From Escherichia phage phiEB49, in sequence record JF770475: a stretch of 47,180 nt of DNA. One strand, given 5' to 3'. Numbering within the stretch: the stretch's first letter is position 1; every line of letters starts with the position of its first letter. The notes beneath the pieces were generated by a model, which did not search any database, had not been told where the DNA came from, and saw only the letters and a list, made by a program, of their open reading frames with translations. The position numbers and the translations under genes were made by a program. Positions 4,343-37,171 of the stretch are shown in pieces.

Positions 4343-4809
4343 AGTTTAATCTCCGCTTTACGCCTGTTAACCAGGCCTTTGCTAACAACCTTCTTACCAC
4401 CAACGGTAATTTTATTCCACATGGAGAAAGCGTCACACCCACCACGAATATCACCACGATTCATACGCCTGATAACGGTTGAGTTGCGCATTGCGTTGGT
4501 GCCAATATTGTATGACAAGCTGTATAGTGCAGCCCTGGTGCTAACAGGAACATCAACATTTAGCGCCGAATCTACAGCCTTTTGATGAATAGACAAATGC
4601 TTTTCAAGAAGTGTGTCACACTCGCGCTGTGTGTAAACCTTACCCAGAATAACGTCTGGACCAGTAATTCCCTGGCAGACGGTCCATACCCCAGCCACAT
4701 CCTTGTAAGGCTTATATTCAACCCCTTCATACTTATTCAGGAACGGAACAGCCAAAGCCATAGCACCAGCGACTACTGAGCCTATAATCTTATTCTTAAA
4801 ACTCATCAC
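4324..4809 (-). CDS. SAR endolysin (T4-lysozyme-like muramidase with signal-arrest-release N-terminus)
   Basis: Gly/Ala-rich weakly hydrophobic N-terminus followed by YEG..D..T lysozyme catalytic region; start overlaps holin stop. Confidence 0.75.
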   Translation of the reverse strand: MMSFKNKIIGSVVAGAMALAVPFLNKYEGVEYKPYKDVAGVWTVCQGITGPDVILGKVYTQRECDTLLEKHLSIHQKAVDSALNVDVPVSTRAALYSLSYNIGTNAMRNSTVIRRMNRGDIRGGCDAFSMWNKITVGGKKVVSKGLVNRRKAEIKLCVSEL

Positions 4810-5021
4810 TTGCTCCTTATCCTCATTGCCTCACGGATATCGCCATCCTCAAGTGCCTTATGGAGCGCCTTGCTGTCCATCCAGCGCAGCCATGCGCCAA
4901 AGATACCAAAGCACACGGCTACGATTAAGCCAATAATGCCGATGATTGTATTGTCAGATAAACCGCCGCCCATAGCTACTCCGCTACCGGACAAAGCGGC
5001 TGCGTCATAGAAATGCTTCAT
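4806..5021 (-). CDS. holin (small, pinholin-like)
   Basis: 71 aa, hydrophobic TMD IIGIIGLIVAVCFGIFGAWL and charged C-terminus; immediately upstream of endolysin. Confidence 0.6.
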   Translation of the reverse strand: MKHFYDAAALSGSGVAMGGGLSDNTIIGIIGLIVAVCFGIFGAWLRWMDSKALHKALEDGDIREAMRIRSK

Positions 5022-5044: not shown

Positions 5045-5062
5045 TGGTTAAATAATACCAGA
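5045..5062 (-). promoter_or_regulatory. putative extended -10 promoter for lysis cassette
   Basis: Minus-strand TGGTATTAT (TGn plus TATTAT) about 30 nt upstream of holin ATG, downstream of a terminator. Confidence 0.3.
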
Positions 5063-8093: not shown

Positions 8094-8417
8094 TTATGCC
8101 TTATCGTAAGAGATTCGAGATACAAGGATTGCGATATCTTTAATATCCATTTCGCTTTTTGTTTTAGCGACTATTGAGTCATACTTATTAGTCAATTCAT
8201 CCTTACTAATCTTGCCGCGAGATTCTATTGCCGTCTCGCAAGTATTGATATACATAGAAACTGTTTTAGCATTAACCACATCAGTTTTGTTAGCGCCCCA
8301 TTCGTTAACTGCAAGGTTGTAAGCGTACTGAACGATGTCATGGCAGTTGTTAGCTTTTGCGTCTGCATTAACACTTGCCACTGCCATCAGGATAGTTGCG
8401 ATAATTAACTTTTTCAT
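8094..8417 (-). CDS. small secreted protein (signal peptide)
   Basis: ORF track trimmed to MKKLIIATILMAVASVNADA signal-peptide start at 8417 with SD GAGGGGAG. Confidence 0.5.
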   Translation of the reverse strand: MKKLIIATILMAVASVNADAKANNCHDIVQYAYNLAVNEWGANKTDVVNAKTVSMYINTCETAIESRGKISKDELTNKYDSIVAKTKSEMDIKDIAILVSRISYDKA

Positions 8418-8456
8418 TTTGCTCCCCTCATTTGTTTGTTTCGTTTCGATGAAGTG

Positions 8457-8501: not shown

Positions 8502-8873
8502 TGATAGATAGTCCTCAATTGCCATTTTAAACATTTCGAACCCGTAGCAGATTGCTGCGTAACCTCCTGTTTCTGATACCTTTTCAAGGAACTCCTTTTG
8601 CTCCTTAGAAACTTTGCTATCTGATTTTATTGCCCGTTTAAGCTCTATTGCGGCAAATCCATTTGGTCCAATCAGTAAGATATCTGACACTCCCTTGACA
8701 ACCCCCTCCTGCTTATCCTTCATGGCTGTACCGATTGACTTCAGCCCCTCGTTCTTTACGTGAAACGCGAATATCTCAGGGTGATTATGTCTCACCCATG
8801 CAATCGAATTAATTTGATGGACTACCTCTTTAGCCTTGTCAGTGCTTGTCTTGTCGTGAAATAACTTAATCAT
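8484..8873 (-). CDS. VRR-NUC domain nuclease
   Basis: PD-(D/E)XK-like core ...GFAAIELKRA...KEQKEFL... typical of VRR-NUC; start overlaps helicase stop. Confidence 0.6.
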   Translation of the reverse strand: MIKLFHDKTSTDKAKEVVHQINSIAWVRHNHPEIFAFHVKNEGLKSIGTAMKDKQEGVVKGVSDILLIGPNGFAAIELKRAIKSDSKVSKEQKEFLEKVSETGGYAAICYGFEMFKMAIEDYLSNSTNC

Positions 8874-10816
8874 CAGAACTCCTTATTTGCCATGTTATCG
8901 CCGCCTTTGGCGGTCTTGCGGTGAGTTACTCGCTTCGGAGCCTGAATGTACTGCGCATACTCCATAATCTTGCGAGCATTGCGATATGCAGCCATATATC
9001 GCTTGGCATTCATATCAACTACGTGACCCTTAATGCCATTATTAAGCCAGAGTGTTTTACATACTCGATGGTCAGACTCTACGAAGAAAACCTCATGAGC
9101 TTTAAATGTCCCACCCATGCCATCATCAAGGATGTAGTTGTAGATGATTCCTGATTGGTTCTTTGTTAGCCCAACCTTAAAGTCAACAACATCAAACCAG
9201 TCGTTCTTGCGGTAATGTTTGCCGCTTAACTTGAGATTTGGATCAAGCAAAGTGCAATCGCAACCCCTACAAATCTTAGCTGCAACGTCATTCTGAACTC
9301 CACAGCCTTTAACGATAACCTTTCCTGTTCGTGGGTCTTTCTGGTCTTCACATGTGCGACTTACCCAGAAGTAAGAGCATCGATCACCACTCTCATCAAC
9401 ATGCATGCATCGGCGAGCATAAAAACTATTCTCAGTTCCGCAAACTGGGCACTGCTTAGTCTCCTTGCCGTTGCTCTTGCGTAGCTGATACTGAGCCTGT
9501 TCAAGAATGGGATTGAAGTACAATGATGCCATCGAGTCCATAGTTCCAGCAAAATCTAAAACCAAATGGTCATTCTTAACCATTCCTTTATCTTCATGTA
9601 GCTTCTTCAGTTTGCGCATTCCGCGACCTAGAAGTTGGACTAGAAGAGTTAAGCTGCCAATCTTGCGTAGGATTACGCTTGTATCCCATGGTGGAATAGA
9701 TACGCCAGTAGTTAGTGCTTGCACTTGAAAACAAAACTTAATCTCTCCATTTAAGCACTTATCCAGTAGCTCCTTACGCTGCTTCTCACCAGTTTTTCCA
9801 GTAATTATGCAGTAAGTCTCACCTTCCGGAAGGTAACTTGCAGCCTCCTTGCAATGGCGCTCACCAGCGCACGTCACGAGAACACCGTTACGATCTTTTG
9901 CCGCCAACCACACCTTCTTCATAATCTCAGCTGTCATTGTACCTGACTGCTGAATCTTCTTCTCCATTGCTTCTAGCTGAGATTTAGTGAAGTCCTGAAC
10001 GCCATCATCAGCTGAAGTGTCGAACTCTGACAGGTCATAACCAACGCCATCAGTAGACCCAAAATTCGTAGGAACAACAGAGCCAAACTCAACTAGATAG
10101 TTGGTATCAATGTTAGTCACTGTTTCACGCCAGAATCCAAGTTCCTTAAGGTTCTCCACAACAATTGGCGTGGTCCCGCGAAAAGGAGAGCCAGTCAGTC
10201 CGAATATCCTAAGTTCACGACCATACTTGGCGCGGCATCTCTCCATCAATGTAAGAATGATGATTGTATACTGACTGCGTCCTTTGTCTCTTGCTTGCTG
10301 AGGTGTCTCATTGTTATCTATTGCCTCAGCGATATCCTGGTCATCAACCATATGACACTCATCTATTGCCACCACAGCCGGGCAAAAATCACCAAGAGCC
10401 TTATCCAATCCACCAACAACTGTACCTTCAGAGCCGACAATTACAGGGAAGTAAGATGACTTAACGCCAAGACCAGAACAGTAAATAGAGTTAGGAACTC
10501 CATAATCTGAGATTTCAGATGCGTTTTGGCTAACCAGCTCTGCCTGGCGAGCAAGTAGAAGCATTGGCAAACCAAGTTCAGAACAGCGTTTTGCAACCAT
10601 AGCGAAAACCAGAGTCTTACCAGCAGAAACTGAAGCCATTGCGATGAACGGGTGCTTATATTTACCAATGCGCTTGGCGATCTCATCATACATTACGCAC
10701 TGATAACTGTATGGAACCATTCCATTTGATGATGTAAATTTTTCCTGAATCTCTTTAATCTTATCTTCGCCTAGTTCTTCAGTCTGTTTTTGTATTGATT
10801 TCAATCGCATAGTCAT
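8873..10816 (-). CDS. superfamily 2 DNA helicase with C-terminal Cys-rich zinc-finger region
   Basis: Walker A SAGKTLVFA, DECH box, helicase C-terminal motifs, CPVCG..C..C cluster. Confidence 0.8.
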   Translation of the reverse strand: MTMRLKSIQKQTEELGEDKIKEIQEKFTSSNGMVPYSYQCVMYDEIAKRIGKYKHPFIAMASVSAGKTLVFAMVAKRCSELGLPMLLLARQAELVSQNASEISDYGVPNSIYCSGLGVKSSYFPVIVGSEGTVVGGLDKALGDFCPAVVAIDECHMVDDQDIAEAIDNNETPQQARDKGRSQYTIIILTLMERCRAKYGRELRIFGLTGSPFRGTTPIVVENLKELGFWRETVTNIDTNYLVEFGSVVPTNFGSTDGVGYDLSEFDTSADDGVQDFTKSQLEAMEKKIQQSGTMTAEIMKKVWLAAKDRNGVLVTCAGERHCKEAASYLPEGETYCIITGKTGEKQRKELLDKCLNGEIKFCFQVQALTTGVSIPPWDTSVILRKIGSLTLLVQLLGRGMRKLKKLHEDKGMVKNDHLVLDFAGTMDSMASLYFNPILEQAQYQLRKSNGKETKQCPVCGTENSFYARRCMHVDESGDRCSYFWVSRTCEDQKDPRTGKVIVKGCGVQNDVAAKICRGCDCTLLDPNLKLSGKHYRKNDWFDVVDFKVGLTKNQSGIIYNYILDDGMGGTFKAHEVFFVESDHRVCKTLWLNNGIKGHVVDMNAKRYMAAYRNARKIMEYAQYIQAPKRVTHRKTAKGGDNMANKEF

Positions 10817-10853
10817 GTTCTCAAATGCCTTTCATGTTCGTTCTATTGACGCT

Positions 10854-10897
10854 ATAATAACAGCCATCAAAGCCAATGTTTAACAAAAAATGCTATC
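10854..10897 (-). promoter_or_regulatory. dyad-motif promoter for helicase operon; dyad also lies in 5' UTR of divergent HTH gene
   Basis: Core 10881-10895 (TAACA-aaaaa-TGCTA); minus TATTAT 10854-10859; plus-strand TATAAT 10853-10858 serves the divergent gene. Confidence 0.45.
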
Positions 10898-10909
10898 GAG
10901 GTGATAAAA

Positions 10910-11383
10910 GTGAGTGAAATTGATAAGCGTACTCTTAACGGTAATAACGGAACAATACGAACAGAAGACAAGAAGCCTCGGAAACGACCGTCAGGTTACT
11001 ATGTTTTAAAGGATGAGGTAAGGGCGGGATTGAGGGCAAGACTTGAAATTGTTTTAGACTTTTACGGCAGCAAGGCGAATATGGCGAAACAATTGAAGGT
11101 TACTCGCCAGGCTGTTGAGGAGTGGTTTAATCGCGGCATGATGTCGGCGCGCGGTGCTCAGCTAGCTCACAATCGATACAAGCGAACAGGTGAGGGCTTT
11201 AGAGCTACATTCTGCCGTCCAGATCTTCAATTTGACGGCAACGGTAAGCCTCTCACTCTTCGTTGCAAAAAGCGCCACATGCTTCGCGTGGTTACTGATG
11301 CTGAATTAGCAACTAAGCCTGAGTGCCGTTCATGGCGCAAAATTAAAGCCGCAAACGAAGCAGCACGAAAAGCTAAAGAGTAA
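10910..11383 (+). CDS. HTH DNA-binding protein (Cro/YdaS-like), candidate transcription regulator
   Basis: GTG start with SD GAGGTGA; helix-turn-helix-like segment SKANMAKQLKVTRQAVEEWFNRG; basic C-terminus. Confidence 0.5.
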   Translation: MSEIDKRTLNGNNGTIRTEDKKPRKRPSGYYVLKDEVRAGLRARLEIVLDFYGSKANMAKQLKVTRQAVEEWFNRGMMSARGAQLAHNRYKRTGEGFRATFCRPDLQFDGNGKPLTLRCKKRHMLRVVTDAELATKPECRSWRKIKAANEAARKAKE

Positions 11384-11389
11384 CAATTG

Positions 11390-11423
11390 AGGTTGTGCCA
11401 TAATCGGTGCAACCTTTTTTATT
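11390..11423 (+). terminator. intrinsic terminator followed by ATTGGAG SD cassette
   Basis: GGTTGTGCC-ataatc-GGTGCAACC followed by TTTTTTATTGGAG. Confidence 0.6.
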
Positions 11424-11426
11424 GGA

Positions 11427-12377
11427 GTGAATACAGTGAGCGAGATAAGTTACCAAAAAGAAGAAGTCCTGCCGTACATGAAAGGCTTGTGGAGGGAGGC
11501 GCTCCAGTCTATATGCGGCCTTAATGATTCATACTTTAGCAAAAAACACGGCCCGTGCCCCCATTGCTCGGGAAAAGACAGGTTCCGCTGGACTGACAAC
11601 ATTAACTCTCCTGGTGACGGCGGGGCTATCTGCAACCAATGCGGTAATGACTCTGGCGTTGGCTGGATGATGAAATTGACTGGTGAGCCTTACAGTGAGG
11701 TGATTAATATTCTGGGTCGATTCCTTGGTAAAGTTCCGCAGGATTACAAGGCAAAGGCTTACCGCAGAGCATCGCGAGTACCTGAGAAAGGATTGGGTAA
11801 GATGTCTGACCATGAGTCATGCTTGGATGTAATGGAGCGCACAGAGAAACGCGAGAGTACTGATTTAAGCTTGTATGAGTGTTTGACTGAGGATTCGTAT
11901 GATGTTGGTGTAAAGTTGCGCAAGGATGGCTCTGAGGAGCTAATACACGCACTGCCATGCTATATGGTTCATGCTGATGGGGTTGATGATGAAATGTGTA
12001 ACGTAATGTTCGCTTATGATAACGGCGAATACACCTTTCTGGCTCGTGATTATTCGCGCGGCTCAGTGGTTAAGCTTGGAAGCGGAGAGGAGGATGCAGC
12101 CATATATATGACAAGCGATCTTATTGATGGCTACCGAGTTAAGATGGCAACCAGTCAGGAGGTGTGGGTTACTTTCACACCAGAGAACCTTGAAATAGTG
12201 GCCTATCGTTATCGCGGGGAACGCGAGTTGCGGGCAGCTTGCCTTCCTGATGATTTGCGAACTCTTTATCTGGCTGATGAGCGAGATTTGAAAGTGGTCG
12301 TGCCTAACCATGGAAACTTCAAAATGGGACTTGAGCGAAGGCTATATAAACCACAAGATCTGATAGATAAGTGCTAA
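11427..12377 (+). CDS. putative DNA primase (zinc-ribbon domain)
   Basis: HGPCPHCSG..(19)..CNQCG resembles primase zinc-binding domains; GTG start. Confidence 0.5.
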   Translation: MNTVSEISYQKEEVLPYMKGLWREALQSICGLNDSYFSKKHGPCPHCSGKDRFRWTDNINSPGDGGAICNQCGNDSGVGWMMKLTGEPYSEVINILGRFLGKVPQDYKAKAYRRASRVPEKGLGKMSDHESCLDVMERTEKRESTDLSLYECLTEDSYDVGVKLRKDGSEELIHALPCYMVHADGVDDEMCNVMFAYDNGEYTFLARDYSRGSVVKLGSGEEDAAIYMTSDLIDGYRVKMATSQEVWVTFTPENLEIVAYRYRGERELRAACLPDDLRTLYLADERDLKVVVPNHGNFKMGLERRLYKPQDLIDKC

Positions 12378-12385
12378 TGAAAATT

Positions 12386-12408
12386 ACCCGCTTCGGCGGG
12401 TTTTTTTA
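12386..12408 (+). terminator. intrinsic terminator
   Basis: CCCGC-ttcg-GCGGG followed by TTTTTTT. Confidence 0.7.
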
Positions 12409-12422
12409 TGCAAGGAAGATGG

Positions 12423-12449
12423 TATACTTTATTTTAGCAAATCGTGCTA
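12423..12449 (+). promoter_or_regulatory. TATACT -10 element with dyad in operator position (+1 to +15)
   Basis: TATACT 12423-12428 directly followed by TAGCA-aatcg-TGCTA 12435-12449; SD TAAGGA before ATG 12476. Confidence 0.4.
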
Positions 12450-12475
12450 TCAACTTAAATTAAGGATTTACAATT

Positions 12476-15469
12476 ATGGCGATTTATGACGCGGGCACTG
12501 CCTCGCTAGATGCTGATGGTACAGTTACTGGCGTAGGGACAACCTGGCGACAACCACTAACGCTCATTCGCGTTGGTGCAACAATGATTTTCAATACATC
12601 ACCGATTAGCATCGTGACAATCGCTGAGATCTTGAGTGATACAAGCATTCGCGCGTTTAACGATAAGGGATTTATAGCTCCGGAAGGCACTCAGTATTTC
12701 ATCCTGGCTCATGACGGGATTACAGTTCAAGGGCTGGCTCAAGACGTCGCTGAGACTCTTCGTTACTATCAGTCAAGTGAGACGCAGATTGCGGATCTTG
12801 TTGAGCTTGCTAAGTCTGGTGATTTTGATTTTGATAAGTTACAGCGATTAGTTAATGAAGCAAAGGCAAGCGAAACAAATGCAGCATCAAGCGCATTGGC
12901 AGCATCAGCCAGCCAGCAAGCTGCCGCTACAAGCCAGACTCTGGCTGAATCAAGCGCAAGCAGTGCGCAAGCGGCATACAATAACACGGTTGATGTTATT
13001 GCTAATGCTGGTGATGCTGGAACCTTGGTTACGCTTGCTAATATTGGTATAGCTACAGATTCAACACCGCTAATAAATAACTTCGATTGGCAGAATTTTA
13101 CCTTTAAGTCAGGAGGACTTTATCGCGCCAATGTTTCATCAATGATGAACACCCCGGGCGATATCACTTTAACCTTCGGTGAATCCATAGCTGCCTTATG
13201 TATTCAAGTTATATCAAAGTCAAGTAATACAACAACGCACTCCTTAAGGGTTGTATCTCAGTCATCAACAAGCAACCAGTATAGCAGGGAAATTTACATC
13301 CAGTTTACAGGAGCGCCTGGCGCAAGGGTTTTTGCACCAGGTAGAGAAATGGTGATGGTTGGGGCTGGCAAGTCCGGAGGTGGAGCTACGGCATCGAGGG
13401 CTAGAAACTTACTTGATGTTTACTCAAAAGCCGAATCTGACGCAATAAGGACAATTGCTCTTGGTGGGAACTTTCAGGATGGAATGACTATCCAGTCGAA
13501 AAGCCAGCAAATCTTAAATGTTAAAAATGGAATTGCGGAGGCTTATGTGTGGGCGGGGTCACTCCCTAAAGTTGTTCCAGCAAACTCAACGCCTGAAACA
13601 TCTGGCGGGATTGGTGATGGAGCTTGGGTTCAGCTTGGCGGATACTCTTCTGGTGTTAGCTCTATTTATGACTTAATTAACAAACAAGCACAACCTCAGT
13701 CAATTGTGAATGTTAAGTCTTATATTTCTGGCTCCAATTCTGGTGGTGGTGTTTTCTATTGGAGCGAAACAACTCCAAAAAGTAGACACAATGGGGTTAC
13801 AGTGTTCAGCCCCACCGTTCCATTTGACGGAACGCATAGCGGAATTGCTGATTTCATTTCCGCTTCTGGCGAATCTGATCCGTCAGGTCTTGGGTGTTGG
13901 GTTCGAATCACCTCTGGATTTGATGAAATTCACACCGAATGGGCTGGGCATGATGTTTCTGGCATCAACACATCAAATGCATCAGTAATGAAGTGCATTC
14001 AGATGGGTCACGAACAGTCAAAGACTGTGAGACTCAGTGCAGGAAGGCTAAAAGTCTCTTTCGACAATGGGGTTCAGTACAACGACAAATATAGTGTTTT
14101 TAGGCAGACTGCCTTTTTCTTGAGCGGCTTAAAGGTAAAGATTTTTGCCAAAAACGATGTAGAGATTGATATATCAGCGAGCTCTTCTCCGGAAAGGGTT
14201 GTTTTTGGACTTAAGGGTTGTGATTTCATCGCTGAAGGCTTTAACTGGAATAGTGATTTTTCAGACTATTCAATCGGTGAATCAGACACAACTCACAGGG
14301 CTAGGGAAGACTGGTTTGGATTCCTTGCTGAAGGTTGCTCATCAGTTGTTGTTGATAAGATGATTGTTAACGCCTCAAGGGCATTCATAAACGCTGATGC
14401 TTTAAATGGAGACTCAAACGCATTCATTGCCCTAAGGAACTCAAAGTTTAAATATAACGTAAACTACTGCCTGATAACCAGGAATTGTGACTATTCTGAA
14501 TTTATTGGAAATGAAACAAAGCAGTCTGGTAGGGTGTGGCATACTTATGGTGAGGACTATGCGATTTCAGAGCGCAGCAGAAGGTCTTATGCTCACAACA
14601 ATAAGTTCTATTATCCTATATCCATCCAGTCAAGGATAACCCCAGCTGGAGAGAACATAACAGTTACTGATAACTATTATGCTGGCTCAGGGATTTTTGT
14701 TGAAGCCTTCGCTTGTAACAATGTGATATGTAAGGGAAATACAAGCATTATTACAACCGACTCTGTTGGCAGAGCGTCGTCTCACTATCTTTTGATAACT
14801 AACGACGATTCCAATGATTGGGGTGTTAATGAAGGATTGAGTAACATCATTATATCTAACAACATAATGATTGGAGGGGGAATATCTGTGCAGGGTTACA
14901 ACGAAGGGGTGCAGGTTAAAAATGGATTGATTATCACAGATAATACAATGACTGATACAAAAGCGCCTGTGCTTGGTGCTTCGTCGTGGGTTGGAACTAC
15001 ATTCTCTGGTAACAAATGCAGGTTTACACCTGGATATGGTGGCCTTGGGGTTGGAGGGCAGTACCCTACAGTCAGCAATAACATTATAGACGGTGGGTAT
15101 ATTTCGTGCAGGTTTGGGTATGAAATAACATCACCAACGTTTGAAAACAACATTTTTAGAAACACAACTGGAGCGACACTATCAACCATTTTTGATATTG
15201 ATAGTTTTTCTGGTGGTATTTTTAGAAACAACAACTTCAGGGCCTCTAGCTTCCTTATGGTGTTCCCAATTAACGATAACGTTGTTAAGGTTGGTTTTAG
15301 ATATGTTGACTATGGTTTCAGTTCAAGGCCAACAGATACGTATGGTTCAAAGTGCGTAATTAGAGCTGGTGACTGGATTATTAACGACAACCCATCAACT
15401 TATGGCTCTGCTGCTGCCTGGATTGGTGGATCAAACGGTGCTTATCTTCAACTAAGTACTGCTGTATAA
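12476..15469 (+). CDS. tail fiber / tailspike with beta-helix-like C-terminal region
   Basis: N-terminus MAIYDAGTASLDADGTVTGVGTTW typical of tail fiber N-domains; C-terminal NNI/GN-rich repeats suggest parallel beta-helix. Confidence 0.65.
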   Translation: MAIYDAGTASLDADGTVTGVGTTWRQPLTLIRVGATMIFNTSPISIVTIAEILSDTSIRAFNDKGFIAPEGTQYFILAHDGITVQGLAQDVAETLRYYQSSETQIADLVELAKSGDFDFDKLQRLVNEAKASETNAASSALAASASQQAAATSQTLAESSASSAQAAYNNTVDVIANAGDAGTLVTLANIGIATDSTPLINNFDWQNFTFKSGGLYRANVSSMMNTPGDITLTFGESIAALCIQVISKSSNTTTHSLRVVSQSSTSNQYSREIYIQFTGAPGARVFAPGREMVMVGAGKSGGGATASRARNLLDVYSKAESDAIRTIALGGNFQDGMTIQSKSQQILNVKNGIAEAYVWAGSLPKVVPANSTPETSGGIGDGAWVQLGGYSSGVSSIYDLINKQAQPQSIVNVKSYISGSNSGGGVFYWSETTPKSRHNGVTVFSPTVPFDGTHSGIADFISASGESDPSGLGCWVRITSGFDEIHTEWAGHDVSGINTSNASVMKCIQMGHEQSKTVRLSAGRLKVSFDNGVQYNDKYSVFRQTAFFLSGLKVKIFAKNDVEIDISASSSPERVVFGLKGCDFIAEGFNWNSDFSDYSIGESDTTHRAREDWFGFLAEGCSSVVVDKMIVNASRAFINADALNGDSNAFIALRNSKFKYNVNYCLITRNCDYSEFIGNETKQSGRVWHTYGEDYAISERSRRSYAHNNKFYYPISIQSRITPAGENITVTDNYYAGSGIFVEAFACNNVICKGNTSIITTDSVGRASSHYLLITNDDSNDWGVNEGLSNIIISNNIMIGGGISVQGYNEGVQVKNGLIITDNTMTDTKAPVLGASSWVGTTFSGNKCRFTPGYGGLGVGGQYPTVSNNIIDGGYISCRFGYEITSPTFENNIFRNTTGATLSTIFDIDSFSGGIFRNNNFRASSFLMVFPINDNVVKVGFRYVDYGFSSRPTDTYGSKCVIRAGDWIINDNPSTYGSAAAWIGGSNGAYLQLSTAV

Positions 15470-19371: not shown

Positions 19372-19726
19372 TTGTATATCGGTGTAAACCGCACATAAAT
19401 ACGCCTCGCGAGTCTCTGGGCTGCATGGATGCTGAATGTAACTGTTGTAACCAATGTATCCACCACTTTTGCACCCTATCTATATCTATATGCATTTCCT
19501 CCTTAACTGGAAATAAAACATAGTCTTTTAGAAAAACATACAAACATAGCTATAGAGAGTAGTTACAATATATACATAGTAATATATATAATAATAATAA
19601 TACTCTAAACCCTTATTATATAAGGATTTATAGATGTAACTAATGCGTATCTGCGCGTAAAAAGCGTATACAATTTTCCGCGGATGATATTGTATACATC
19701 GAGTTACATCGGTTACGCGTATATCA

Positions 19727-19772
19727 AATAGCACGATTTGCTAAAGACTCCAGCAGCAGCCTTTGCTATAGT
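19727..19772 (+). promoter_or_regulatory. dyad-motif promoter
   Basis: Core 19729-19743; 23-nt spacer; TGcTATAGT 19764-19772; leader CATCGAAACGAAAC and SD AAGGA before ATG 19813. Confidence 0.5.
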
Positions 19773-19812
19773 TACTCCATCGAAACGAAACACACTTACT
19801 AAGGAATACAAA

Positions 19813-36481: not shown

Positions 36482-37171
36482 TTAGCTTGCGATGATCTTA
36501 GCTACGCGAAGCTGCGCGAGAAGGTCGTTTAGCTTAGTGCCTACCGCGTTAACTGCAGCGGTGGCTGATGTAGCTACTTCGGCGGCTTCAGCACCAGTCA
36601 CGGTCTGGCTCCCAACGTTAGCAACCGCCGCACCAGCAACAAACTTGTTACCCGGCATTGCGTTAGTCGCGCCAGTGCCAATCTGGATGGCTCCAGCAGC
36701 AGTGGTGCTTGCAAGTGGGAGACCAGACACAGGAACTACGCCACCAATGTTAGTCAAAGTCTTGTTTCCAGCCATAGCCTGGTTTGCTGCGGTGCCGACA
36801 ATTGGCGAGAAAGTGGATGGCTTTCCAGTTACGTCTCCCCACGCCACAGAGACGGAGCCGCCAGCACTGCCTTTATATGCATAGGCAAAGAACTGACCTG
36901 ACGACAGACTCAGGCTTGATGTGTCAATGGTGAAGCCATCATCAGACGCGGCCTCGATAGCATCGAACAGATTGCGCATATTGGTGGAGGTGATTACCTT
37001 CGCTTCGGTGATTGAGCTGTCAGCACCTTTTGCGACAACGACAGAATATGACTGAGAGCCACTTACCGTGATTTTACTTACTGGCTGAAAACCATCATCG
37101 ATAGCGGCTTGAAGCAGCGTGTTGAATCTACCGCTATCCGCACTGATAGCTTTAACTTCGGTATAAGCCAT
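36482..37171 (-). CDS. structural protein with Ala/Gly-rich repeats
   Basis: ORF track; repeats like AMAGNK / AMPGNK. Confidence 0.4.
   Translation of the reverse strand: MAYTEVKAISADSGRFNTLLQAAIDDGFQPVSKITVSGSQSYSVVVAKGADSSITEAKVITSTNMRNLFDAIEAASDDGFTIDTSSLSLSSGQFFAYAYKGSAGGSVSVAWGDVTGKPSTFSPIVGTAANQAMAGNKTLTNIGGVVPVSGLPLASTTAAGAIQIGTGATNAMPGNKFVAGAAVANVGSQTVTGAEAAEVATSATAAVNAVGTKLNDLLAQLRVAKIIAS

Follow-up and report, generated by a model that had tools for sequence, protein, structure and literature searches.

Phage lambda cI, bound at OR, activates PRM from OR2 near −42 and represses PR, and P22 c2 acts alike. The position near −42 is that of class II activators as well as that of cI at PRM. 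The controller (C) proteins of restriction-modification systems, for example C.BclI and C.EcoT38IS, activate and then repress depending on which dyad is filled, and autoregulate. Other phage factors (phi29 p4, Mu Mor and C, T4 MotA) let the host sigma-70 polymerase use promoters that have no good −35, and p4 also represses other promoters, depending on the position of its site. Position-dependent activation and repression by a single phage HTH protein is a classic principle. Bidirectional promoters of bacteria most commonly have start sites about 18 bp apart, and CRP placed at −40.5 of such a promoter activates one direction and blocks the other via polymerase competition (PMC12825309).

T1 is a classic coliphage; for T1-like phages, genome papers give only a handful of sigma-70 promoters and an unexplained repeat. 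The 2024 re-annotation of the related phage TLS describes this repeat as a 21-nt "direct repeat" aaATAGCACnnnTTGnTAAAA with 21 copies, also found in T1, Rtp and Rogue1, oriented with transcription and located about 76 nt ahead of start codons (PMC11447400). A stoperator, an enhancer site and a UP element were offered as ideas and the function was left open; just three sigma-70-like promoters were found, P57 among them (PMC11447400). The motif itself is therefore already published. The −42 geometry, the −10 shared at the regulator gene and the reversed copy at the tail-fibre gene, all described below, are absent from that paper (PMC11447400) and from the other literature found. In the literature searched, in part with an ill-targeted query, nothing relevant came up on transcriptomes, transcription starts or protein binding in T1-like phages, nor on the motif string. 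The annotated "promoter" features of phage AHP24 mark the plus-strand promoter of the HTH gene and leave the motif unmarked.

The window, i.e. the whole stretch of 47,180 bp analyzed here, is the complete genome of the T1-like siphophage phiEB49, with 84–87% nucleotide identity to Rogunavirinae phages (Opt-719, e4/1c, Sf12, AHP24). An earlier note had pointed to one dyad in two unusual places of this genome, right behind the −10 of the tail-fibre gene and in the leader of an HTH gene that diverges from a helicase operon, and had suggested that a single factor activates early promoters and represses or autoregulates these two genes. In this region the helicase operon is transcribed from the minus strand, followed on the plus strand by genes for the HTH protein, a primase-type zinc-ribbon protein and a tail fibre/tailspike of 997 amino acids. 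The features are as follows.

8873..10816, minus strand: helicase gene, heading the divergent operon that is predicted to be driven by the motif at 10881.
10831..10836, plus strand: weak −35-like TTCATG of the HTH promoter, 16-nt spacer.
10853..10859, both strands: shared −10 block TATAATA, core of the bidirectional promoter.
10853-10858, plus strand: TATAAT, −10 of the HTH gene, 22 nt upstream of the dyad.
10859-10854, minus strand: TATTAT, preceded by TGt, −10 of the helicase operon, 21 nt from the dyad.
10875..10900, minus strand: family motif CTCGATAGCATTTTTTGTTAAACATT, matrix score 22.2, the −42-type site of the helicase-operon promoter, abutting the Shine-Dalgarno (SD) sequence of the HTH gene.
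10881-10895: dyad core TAACAAAAAATGCTA with one mismatch to the dyad, in the predicted HTH leader.
Directly after this dyad, plus strand: SD GAGGTG of the HTH gene.
10910..11383, plus strand: candidate regulator of 157 amino acids whose HTH core is Cro-like; the listed ORF begins at GTG 10901.
11361-11375, plus strand: weak copy of the motif, CAGCACGAAAAGCTA, in forward orientation within the 3'-terminal part of the HTH gene, corresponding to DR10 of TLS.
11399-11404, plus strand: CATAAT, 23 nt past the CAGCACGAAAAGCTA copy, in the loop of the HTH terminator hairpin.
11427-12377, plus strand: primase-like gene, encoding the zinc-ribbon protein.
12386..12408, plus strand: rho-independent terminator of the primase-like gene (stem-loop 12386-12401 and T-run), a terminator likewise when read on the minus strand.
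12420..12428, plus strand: extended −10 TGgTATACT of the tail-fibre gene (TG 12420-12421, TATACT 12423-12428), with no −35 match.
12429..12454, minus strand: reversed family motif GTTGATAGCACGATTTGCTAAAATAA, putative operator, matrix score 25.1 on the minus strand and below 8 on the plus strand.
12435-12449: perfect dyad core TAGCAAATCGTGCTA, 6 nt (ttattt) past the extended −10 and 26 nt before the tail-fibre ATG.
12462..12478, plus strand: SD AAGGA (12462-12466) and ATG (12476) of the tail-fibre gene.
12476-15469, plus strand: tail-fibre/tailspike gene, 997 amino acids, with the domains Tail_spike_N and Beta_helix.

TAGCA-N5-TGCTA, with one mismatch at most, matches 21 times in the window, nine times more often than expected (2.27), and none of 100 shuffled sequences reached 21. 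Sixteen copies share a common layout: TAGCAC-NNN-TTGCTA, a gap of 21–23 nt and TAnnnT, in most cases followed by a leader resembling CATCGAAACGAGAGGA and a start codon. The half-site centres are 10 bp apart, as expected of an HTH dimer. The two sides of the element differ (AAATAGCAC and TTGCTAAAA), and the term dyad used in the earlier note had to give way to an oriented motif of 21–26 nt. By its sequence, the dyad is the central part of aaATAGCACnnnTTGnTAAAA, an oriented motif found throughout Drexlerviridae.

A position matrix was built from the 16 copies of the window (scan cut-off 8) and applied to a family sample of 72 loci with homologues of the HTH protein (55–99% identity), three more distant loci and the records of TLS, Sf12 and AHP24; the window genome itself is contained in the locus sample as L010 (IMGVR_UViG_2700988963). 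At a score of at least 20, this phage and 77 related or duplicate loci gave 312 distinct oriented copies. A −10-like hexamer lies 21–23 nt 3' of the 15-mer in 288 of them; its start was found 21, 22 and 23 nt after the 15-mer in 39, 226 and 28 cases, respectively. With start sites taken from the −10, this puts the centre of the dyad near −42. The edge of the motif abuts a poor −35, a position that reads AAGACG or ATGACA. The ordinary copies thus have the geometry of class II activator sites (a site around −41.5, a weak −35 and a recognizable −10), which the copy at 12435 does not have, and their rigid spacing fits the −42-type activator site proposed before. What did not survive is the designation "early promoters". 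Among the genes behind −42 copies are those for replication, lysis, portal and tail as well as genes of the capsid region, and these copies therefore would belong to general phage promoters. Only 24 of the 312 copies are without a −10 at 21–23 nt, and 18 of these are the reversed tail-fibre copies, including the one of L064, a genome in which the gene is inverted. In all three layouts, i.e. ordinary, HTH and tail fibre, the −10 is on the TTGCTA side of the motif and only distance and reading direction differ, which would fit a directional contact.

Several further observations concern the ordinary copies and their surroundings. A leader of the type YCAYCGAAAC...AAACGAGAGGA is conserved after most −42-type promoters and runs into the SD (for example 8410-8440 on the minus strand, 19775-19800 on the plus strand and 40520-40545 on the minus strand, among the 16 forward copies); the tail-fibre and HTH leaders are without it. 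It could be a signal in the initially transcribed region or a translation signal. The weak copy at 11361 and the CATAAT behind it (11361..11404, plus strand) form the predicted promoter of the primase-like gene; the copy itself encodes the C terminus AARKAKE of the HTH protein, which is STNS or STNC in other lineages. A hairpin or terminator between motif and −10 is likewise seen at the copies 1729, 7050, 32928, 35433 and 40580. In TLS-like genomes (L077, 18775-18830; L075, 9765-9820) a forward copy lies 10 nt upstream of TTGCAT-N17-CATACT (L077) or CATAGT (L075), with its centre near −53 instead of −42, possibly a class I-like variant. Finally, there are intergenic extended −10 elements free of the motif, all on the minus strand, at 43250-43258, 37201-37209 and 5052-5060. 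They precede the minus-strand ORFs 42708-43223 (collinear with the terminase small subunit of Sf12), 36482-37171 and 4806-5021 (collinear with the holin of Sf12), and the first two follow a T-run. These three are candidates for activator-independent promoters.

At the HTH gene, the arrangement proposed in the earlier note was borne out: a single dyad (10881-10895) is the −42-type site of the minus-strand helicase operon and at the same time lies in the leader of the HTH gene, past the plus-strand TATAAT at 10853. Moreover, the copy recurs in all 50 distinct HTH upstream regions of the family sample, always oriented toward the helicase operon and abutting the SD of the HTH gene, 22–24 nt from the plus-strand −10. 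In each of the 50 regions the plus- and minus-strand −10 are offset by exactly 1 nt. The plus-strand −10 matches the consensus in 5.7 of 6 positions on average and is mostly TATAAT; the minus-strand −10 reaches 4.86 of 6. With a mean of 3.9 of 6, the −35 on the plus strand is of medium quality; it reads TTGTCA in the T1 group and TTGACT in TLS, both stronger than the TTCATG of the window. TLS has the same regulator/helicase layout, and its P57 is located there. The rule derived for TLS, orientation with transcription and a distance of 76 nt, describes the 10881 copy with respect to the helicase gene and fails with respect to the HTH gene. The two −10s overlap on opposite strands and, if each start is 7 nt from its −10, the starts are about 18 bp apart, as in bidirectional promoters. 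Counted from such a start, the dyad in the HTH leader covers about +17 to +31 and so lies where the polymerase footprint ends. Because of this position, competition of polymerases for the shared −10 is likelier than a simple operator.

At the tail-fibre gene the copy is arranged differently. As described before, the dyad directly follows TATACT, at about +1 to +15 if transcription starts some 7 nt after the −10, instead of at −42. Since it scores on the minus strand only, it points away from the tail-fibre gene; it is the window's only strong copy oriented against the neighbouring gene and thus departs from the TLS rule of orientation with local transcription about 76 nt before the start. This layout is no accident of one genome. 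A reversed copy between an extended −10 and the ribosome-binding site of the tail-fibre gene was found in 23 distinct sequences from several lineages, always reversed, among them a TLS-like Salmonella phage (L077) and the T1-type genome with the inverted gene (L064). All 23 have the order terminator, extended −10, reversed motif, SD and a start encoding MAIY, MSIY or MALY; TGnTAnnnT is present in 22 of the 23, and between −10 and dyad 11 sequences have 6 nt, another 11 have 12 nt and L077 has 15 nt. The half-sites have an identity of 0.95 vs 0.60–0.62 in the flanks, the position of the motif stays within +1 to +23 (counted from starts deduced from the −10), and the HTH proteins of the lineages concerned are as low as 54–68% identical to that of the window. 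The extended −10 is also kept in lineages without the motif (AHP24, Sf12, TLS, L073, L075); L071 has a copy with one mismatch, and L036 and L076 have decayed remnants. Since the promoter persists where the motif was lost or has decayed, it is apparently autonomous and the motif dispensable. With the start deduced in this way, the site lies within about −35 to +20 of the predicted promoter, the range of operators that overlap a promoter core. The motif would then be an accessory that covers about +1 to +21, and a protein bound to it would keep RNA polymerase from the promoter.

There is no usable −10 at activating distance from the tail-fibre copy, on either strand. On the minus strand, the hexamer at 21–23 nt is TGCATA, which is no −10. 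A TTGATA-N16-TAAAGT match and an extended −10 made by the motif itself, TGcTAAAAT, are found on the minus strand of this genome only and not in relatives. The latter (12431-12439) consists of the right motif half and its flank, points into the bidirectional terminator and, being unconserved, is probably due to chance. On the plus strand, TACAAT (12469-12474, 19 nt past the dyad) and AATTAT (12472-12477, 22 nt) were considered and rejected as −10 of the tail-fibre gene because the start would fall beyond the ATG. In 15 of 22 extended −10s of this type (tail-fibre promoters of L003-L070, window 12420-12428) the variable base is C, which gives TGCTA, identical to a half-site; no partner half-site was found 10 bp from it. 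Together with 19726-19743 (plus strand), 12432-12449 (minus strand) forms an 18-nt perfect inverted repeat, ATAGCACGATTTGCTAAA, which flanks a module of the tail-fibre gene and the SSB/Erf/exonuclease genes; this module is inverted in T1-type genomes (L076, L064). An inversion of this module mediated by the motif was considered; in L064 the whole cassette of terminator, −10 and motif has moved with the inverted gene, which suggests that the breakpoint was not in the motif itself.

Which protein could bind? The HTH protein had been named as a candidate, and its Cro-like core and the site adjacent to its own gene speak for it. It appears to be the only plausible phage-encoded one. In the annotation of the collinear phage Sf12, the HTH gene is the one conserved transcriptional regulator, and a 64-aa "putative transcription factor" beside an HNH endonuclease gene is the sole other candidate. 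SD spacing and the alignment of homologues make GTG 10910 the likelier start, giving 157 amino acids; the listed GTG 10901 overlaps the SD GAGGTG. As to its family, it is assigned to phrog_2856, "transcriptional regulator". Pfam matches are below the cut-offs (P22_Cro, 22.2 bits vs 30.2; YdaS_toxin, 21.4 vs 30), and profile matches to Cro proteins in the PDB have E values of 0.016–0.05. The core is modelled as all-alpha and Cro-like, in a structure of moderate confidence (pLDDT 77–89 for residues 41-100, mean 60 for the whole protein); the best Foldseek match is Xfaso1 Cro (E = 0.04, TM 0.70 on target, about 62 residues), with N15 Cro, P22 Cro and restriction-modification controller proteins lower in the list. 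The family is confined to Drexlerviridae-type contigs of about 50 kb that carry the motif, and homologues down to 47–55% identity all come from the same phage group with the same motif. Invariant parts are NGNNG/KRKR in the N-terminal region and FCRPDL...NGK toward the C terminus. The helix predicted to recognize the DNA differs from lineage to lineage (TRQAVEEW, SIQVVQQW, SNSLLTIW, SHATLYEW) and the motif is constant, which is unexpected if that helix sets specificity.

Geometry, conservation and the Cro-like core are what the sequences show; from them we infer the transcription starts, that the motif is bound by a protein, which protein this is and whether it activates or represses at each place. 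The most likely reading, to which we give about even chances, is that the dimeric Cro-like protein encoded by 10910-11383 binds the motif, activates at −42, occludes the tail-fibre promoter and autoregulates. At the −42 copies the bound protein would recruit the host sigma-70 RNA polymerase, like cI at PRM or CRP at class II promoters, and these promoters would drive replication, lysis, head and tail genes alike. The regulator and tail-fibre genes would each have an activator-independent sigma-70 promoter of their own that reads toward the motif. Thus, the regulator would first be made by unaided polymerase from the near-consensus TATAAT promoter, then bind the motif 22 nt away and recruit polymerase toward the helicase gene; polymerase engaged in that direction would be excluded from the regulator direction, so that we propose autoregulation by competition, possibly helped by a roadblock further on in the HTH transcript, between about +17 and +31. 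At the tail-fibre gene, the protein on the reversed motif would block access of polymerase, and transcription would be capped or shut down. In sum, one phage protein probably switches most genes on while throttling the tail-fibre and regulator genes. The repression or autoregulation of two genes that was proposed before is supported in part, by geometry and conservation at both genes; at the HTH gene the mechanism would rather be competition than an operator. Several points speak against the model. Besides the variable recognition helix, the HTH matches below the cut-offs with a structure model of moderate confidence, and the loss or decay of the tail-fibre copy in several lineages, it is counter-intuitive that an activator of the other structural genes should repress a structural gene, and the consistent asymmetry of the motif is unexplained by a symmetric dimer.

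An alternative that we regard as unlikely is that the motif is recognized by RNA polymerase or a host protein, in the manner of a UP element or enhancer, and not by the phage HTH protein. In that case the reversed copies that lie downstream would trap polymerase or stall it close to the start, by poor escape or proximal pausing, or bind a host repressor. UP-element and enhancer ideas were raised by the authors of the TLS study (PMC11447400). The motif is invariant in phages of Escherichia, Klebsiella, Salmonella, Pantoea and Erwinia despite the varying HTH helix, and its A-rich flanks and strict polarity toward the −10 would suit a contact with polymerase. However, the core TAGCAC/TTGCTA is unlike the general A/T-tract consensus of UP elements, and we know of no E. 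coli factor with a site of this type. Moreover, motif and HTH family are equally narrow in distribution and the motif is always found beside the HTH gene, as expected if the HTH protein is the factor.

It is also rather improbable, in our view, that the tail-fibre copy is of little consequence for regulation and only a by-product, such as the relic of a duplicated promoter module of the regulator type or a junction of tail-fibre cassette exchange. The similarity of the tail-fibre gene to its relatives stops shortly past the N terminus and tail-fibre genes are mosaic; several lineages have retained the promoter with a decayed copy or none, and the 18-nt inverted repeat with 19726-19743 flanks the module that is inverted in T1-type genomes. 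All this would be expected of a relic or junction, but not the 0.95 identity of the half-sites against 0.60 in the flanks across lineages with HTH proteins 54–68% identical to the window's, nor the constant orientation and a position that never leaves +1 to +23.

If the site is bound, the effect might not be repression: the factor could activate or time the gene from downstream, or repression could be lifted late by titration, making the tail fibre a late gene. Tail fibres are structural proteins needed late, and with some 20 sites per genome titration is conceivable. However, a site at +1 to +21 is inside the polymerase footprint, where activators are rarely known to act, and there is no −10 at activating distance on either strand; we consider this quite unlikely.

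An RNA element, i.e. a 5'-UTR hairpin near the SD that controls translation or stability of the tail-fibre and HTH mRNAs, has very little probability. The dyad is indeed in both predicted leaders, 1–12 nt from the SD, and the tail-fibre leader folds into a 5-bp hairpin (−3.8 kcal/mol, z = −2.5). But the copy in the HTH leader is unfolded (0 kcal/mol), and a common variant, TAACA...TGCTA, used by the HTH sites and by 12 of the 23 at the tail-fibre gene, has an A.C mismatch in the stem that is uncompensated. Most copies are at a fixed distance upstream of a −10, suggesting a property of the DNA.

Sigma-54 promoters have the consensus TGGCAC-N5-TTGCW, with GG at −24 and GC at −12. A promoter of this type or a stoperator array like that of mycobacteriophage L5 is next to impossible: the likeness of TAGCAC-N3-TTGCTA is superficial (the gap is 3 nt and not 5, the near-invariant GG is AG), a sigma-70-type −10 lies at 21–23 nt in 94% of the copies, and, although stoperators were mentioned for TLS (PMC11447400) and the orientation is biased, the copies are upstream of promoters instead of within transcription units. 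Neither an integrase nor an immunity repressor is annotated in Sf12, which is collinear with the window.

To come back to the Cro-like protein as the factor, it is tempting to speculate that this one protein and one oriented site govern almost all transcription of a virulent T1-like phage, by recruitment at −42, by a flip at the shared −10 and with the tail fibre as the single structural gene under negative feedback. In this full extent the proposal is tentative and rather doubtful. If true, the feedback could set the stoichiometry of the fibre or delay fibres until replicated genomes titrate the protein. With the analysis, the published repeat becomes a testable circuit that consists of a −42 activator site, a conserved bidirectional promoter through which the activator would limit itself, and a host-range-determining tail fibre with a site in repressing position. 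If confirmed, this would account for the scarcity of promoters in Drexlerviridae genomes, help to annotate them, provide a natural case of activator-driven polymerase competition at a shared −10, and yield a compact pair of activator and operator with which T1-like therapeutic phages and their tail-fibre cassettes could be engineered. A circuit that activates and throttles in this way is of a classic kind, not yet described for the T1-like phage family.

How close are the known systems? To phi29 p4, Mu Mor/C and T4 MotA no relation in sequence or fold was detected, and their sites are elsewhere (p4 near −82, the MotA box at −30); we know of no AsiA-like co-factor for the T1-like phage system. 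The C proteins resemble the phage protein in being small all-alpha HTH dimers, a likeness seen in the fold matches of Foldseek and in their known function. However, they have one C-box and serve their own operon, whereas the phage protein would serve some 20 promoters and has additional conserved N- and C-terminal regions. With lambda cI and P22 c2 the circuit proposed here would share an HTH dimer acting on dyads, activation at −42 beside a weak −35, repression at the promoter core and control of its own gene from a divergent region. It differs in that the phage is virulent, with about 20 sites genome-wide and no lysogeny switch; the divergent promoters of lambda are about 80 bp apart, whereas those of phiEB49 share one −10 block. 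Furthermore, there is no sign of cooperative multi-site binding, and the protein is related only via the Cro-like HTH core. The "direct repeats" of TLS are the identical sequence element in the same intergenic place, and DR11 and P57 are arranged alike at the regulator and helicase genes; TLS differs by being without the tail-fibre copy. The helicase/HTH promoter matches the geometry of the CRP promoters of Warman et al. (NAR 2026; PMC12825309), with an activator site near −40.5 beside a shared −10. Those constructs are semi-synthetic and from E. coli, whereas the arrangement in phiEB49 is natural and conserved in the family, and the gene that would be blocked encodes the presumed activator itself.
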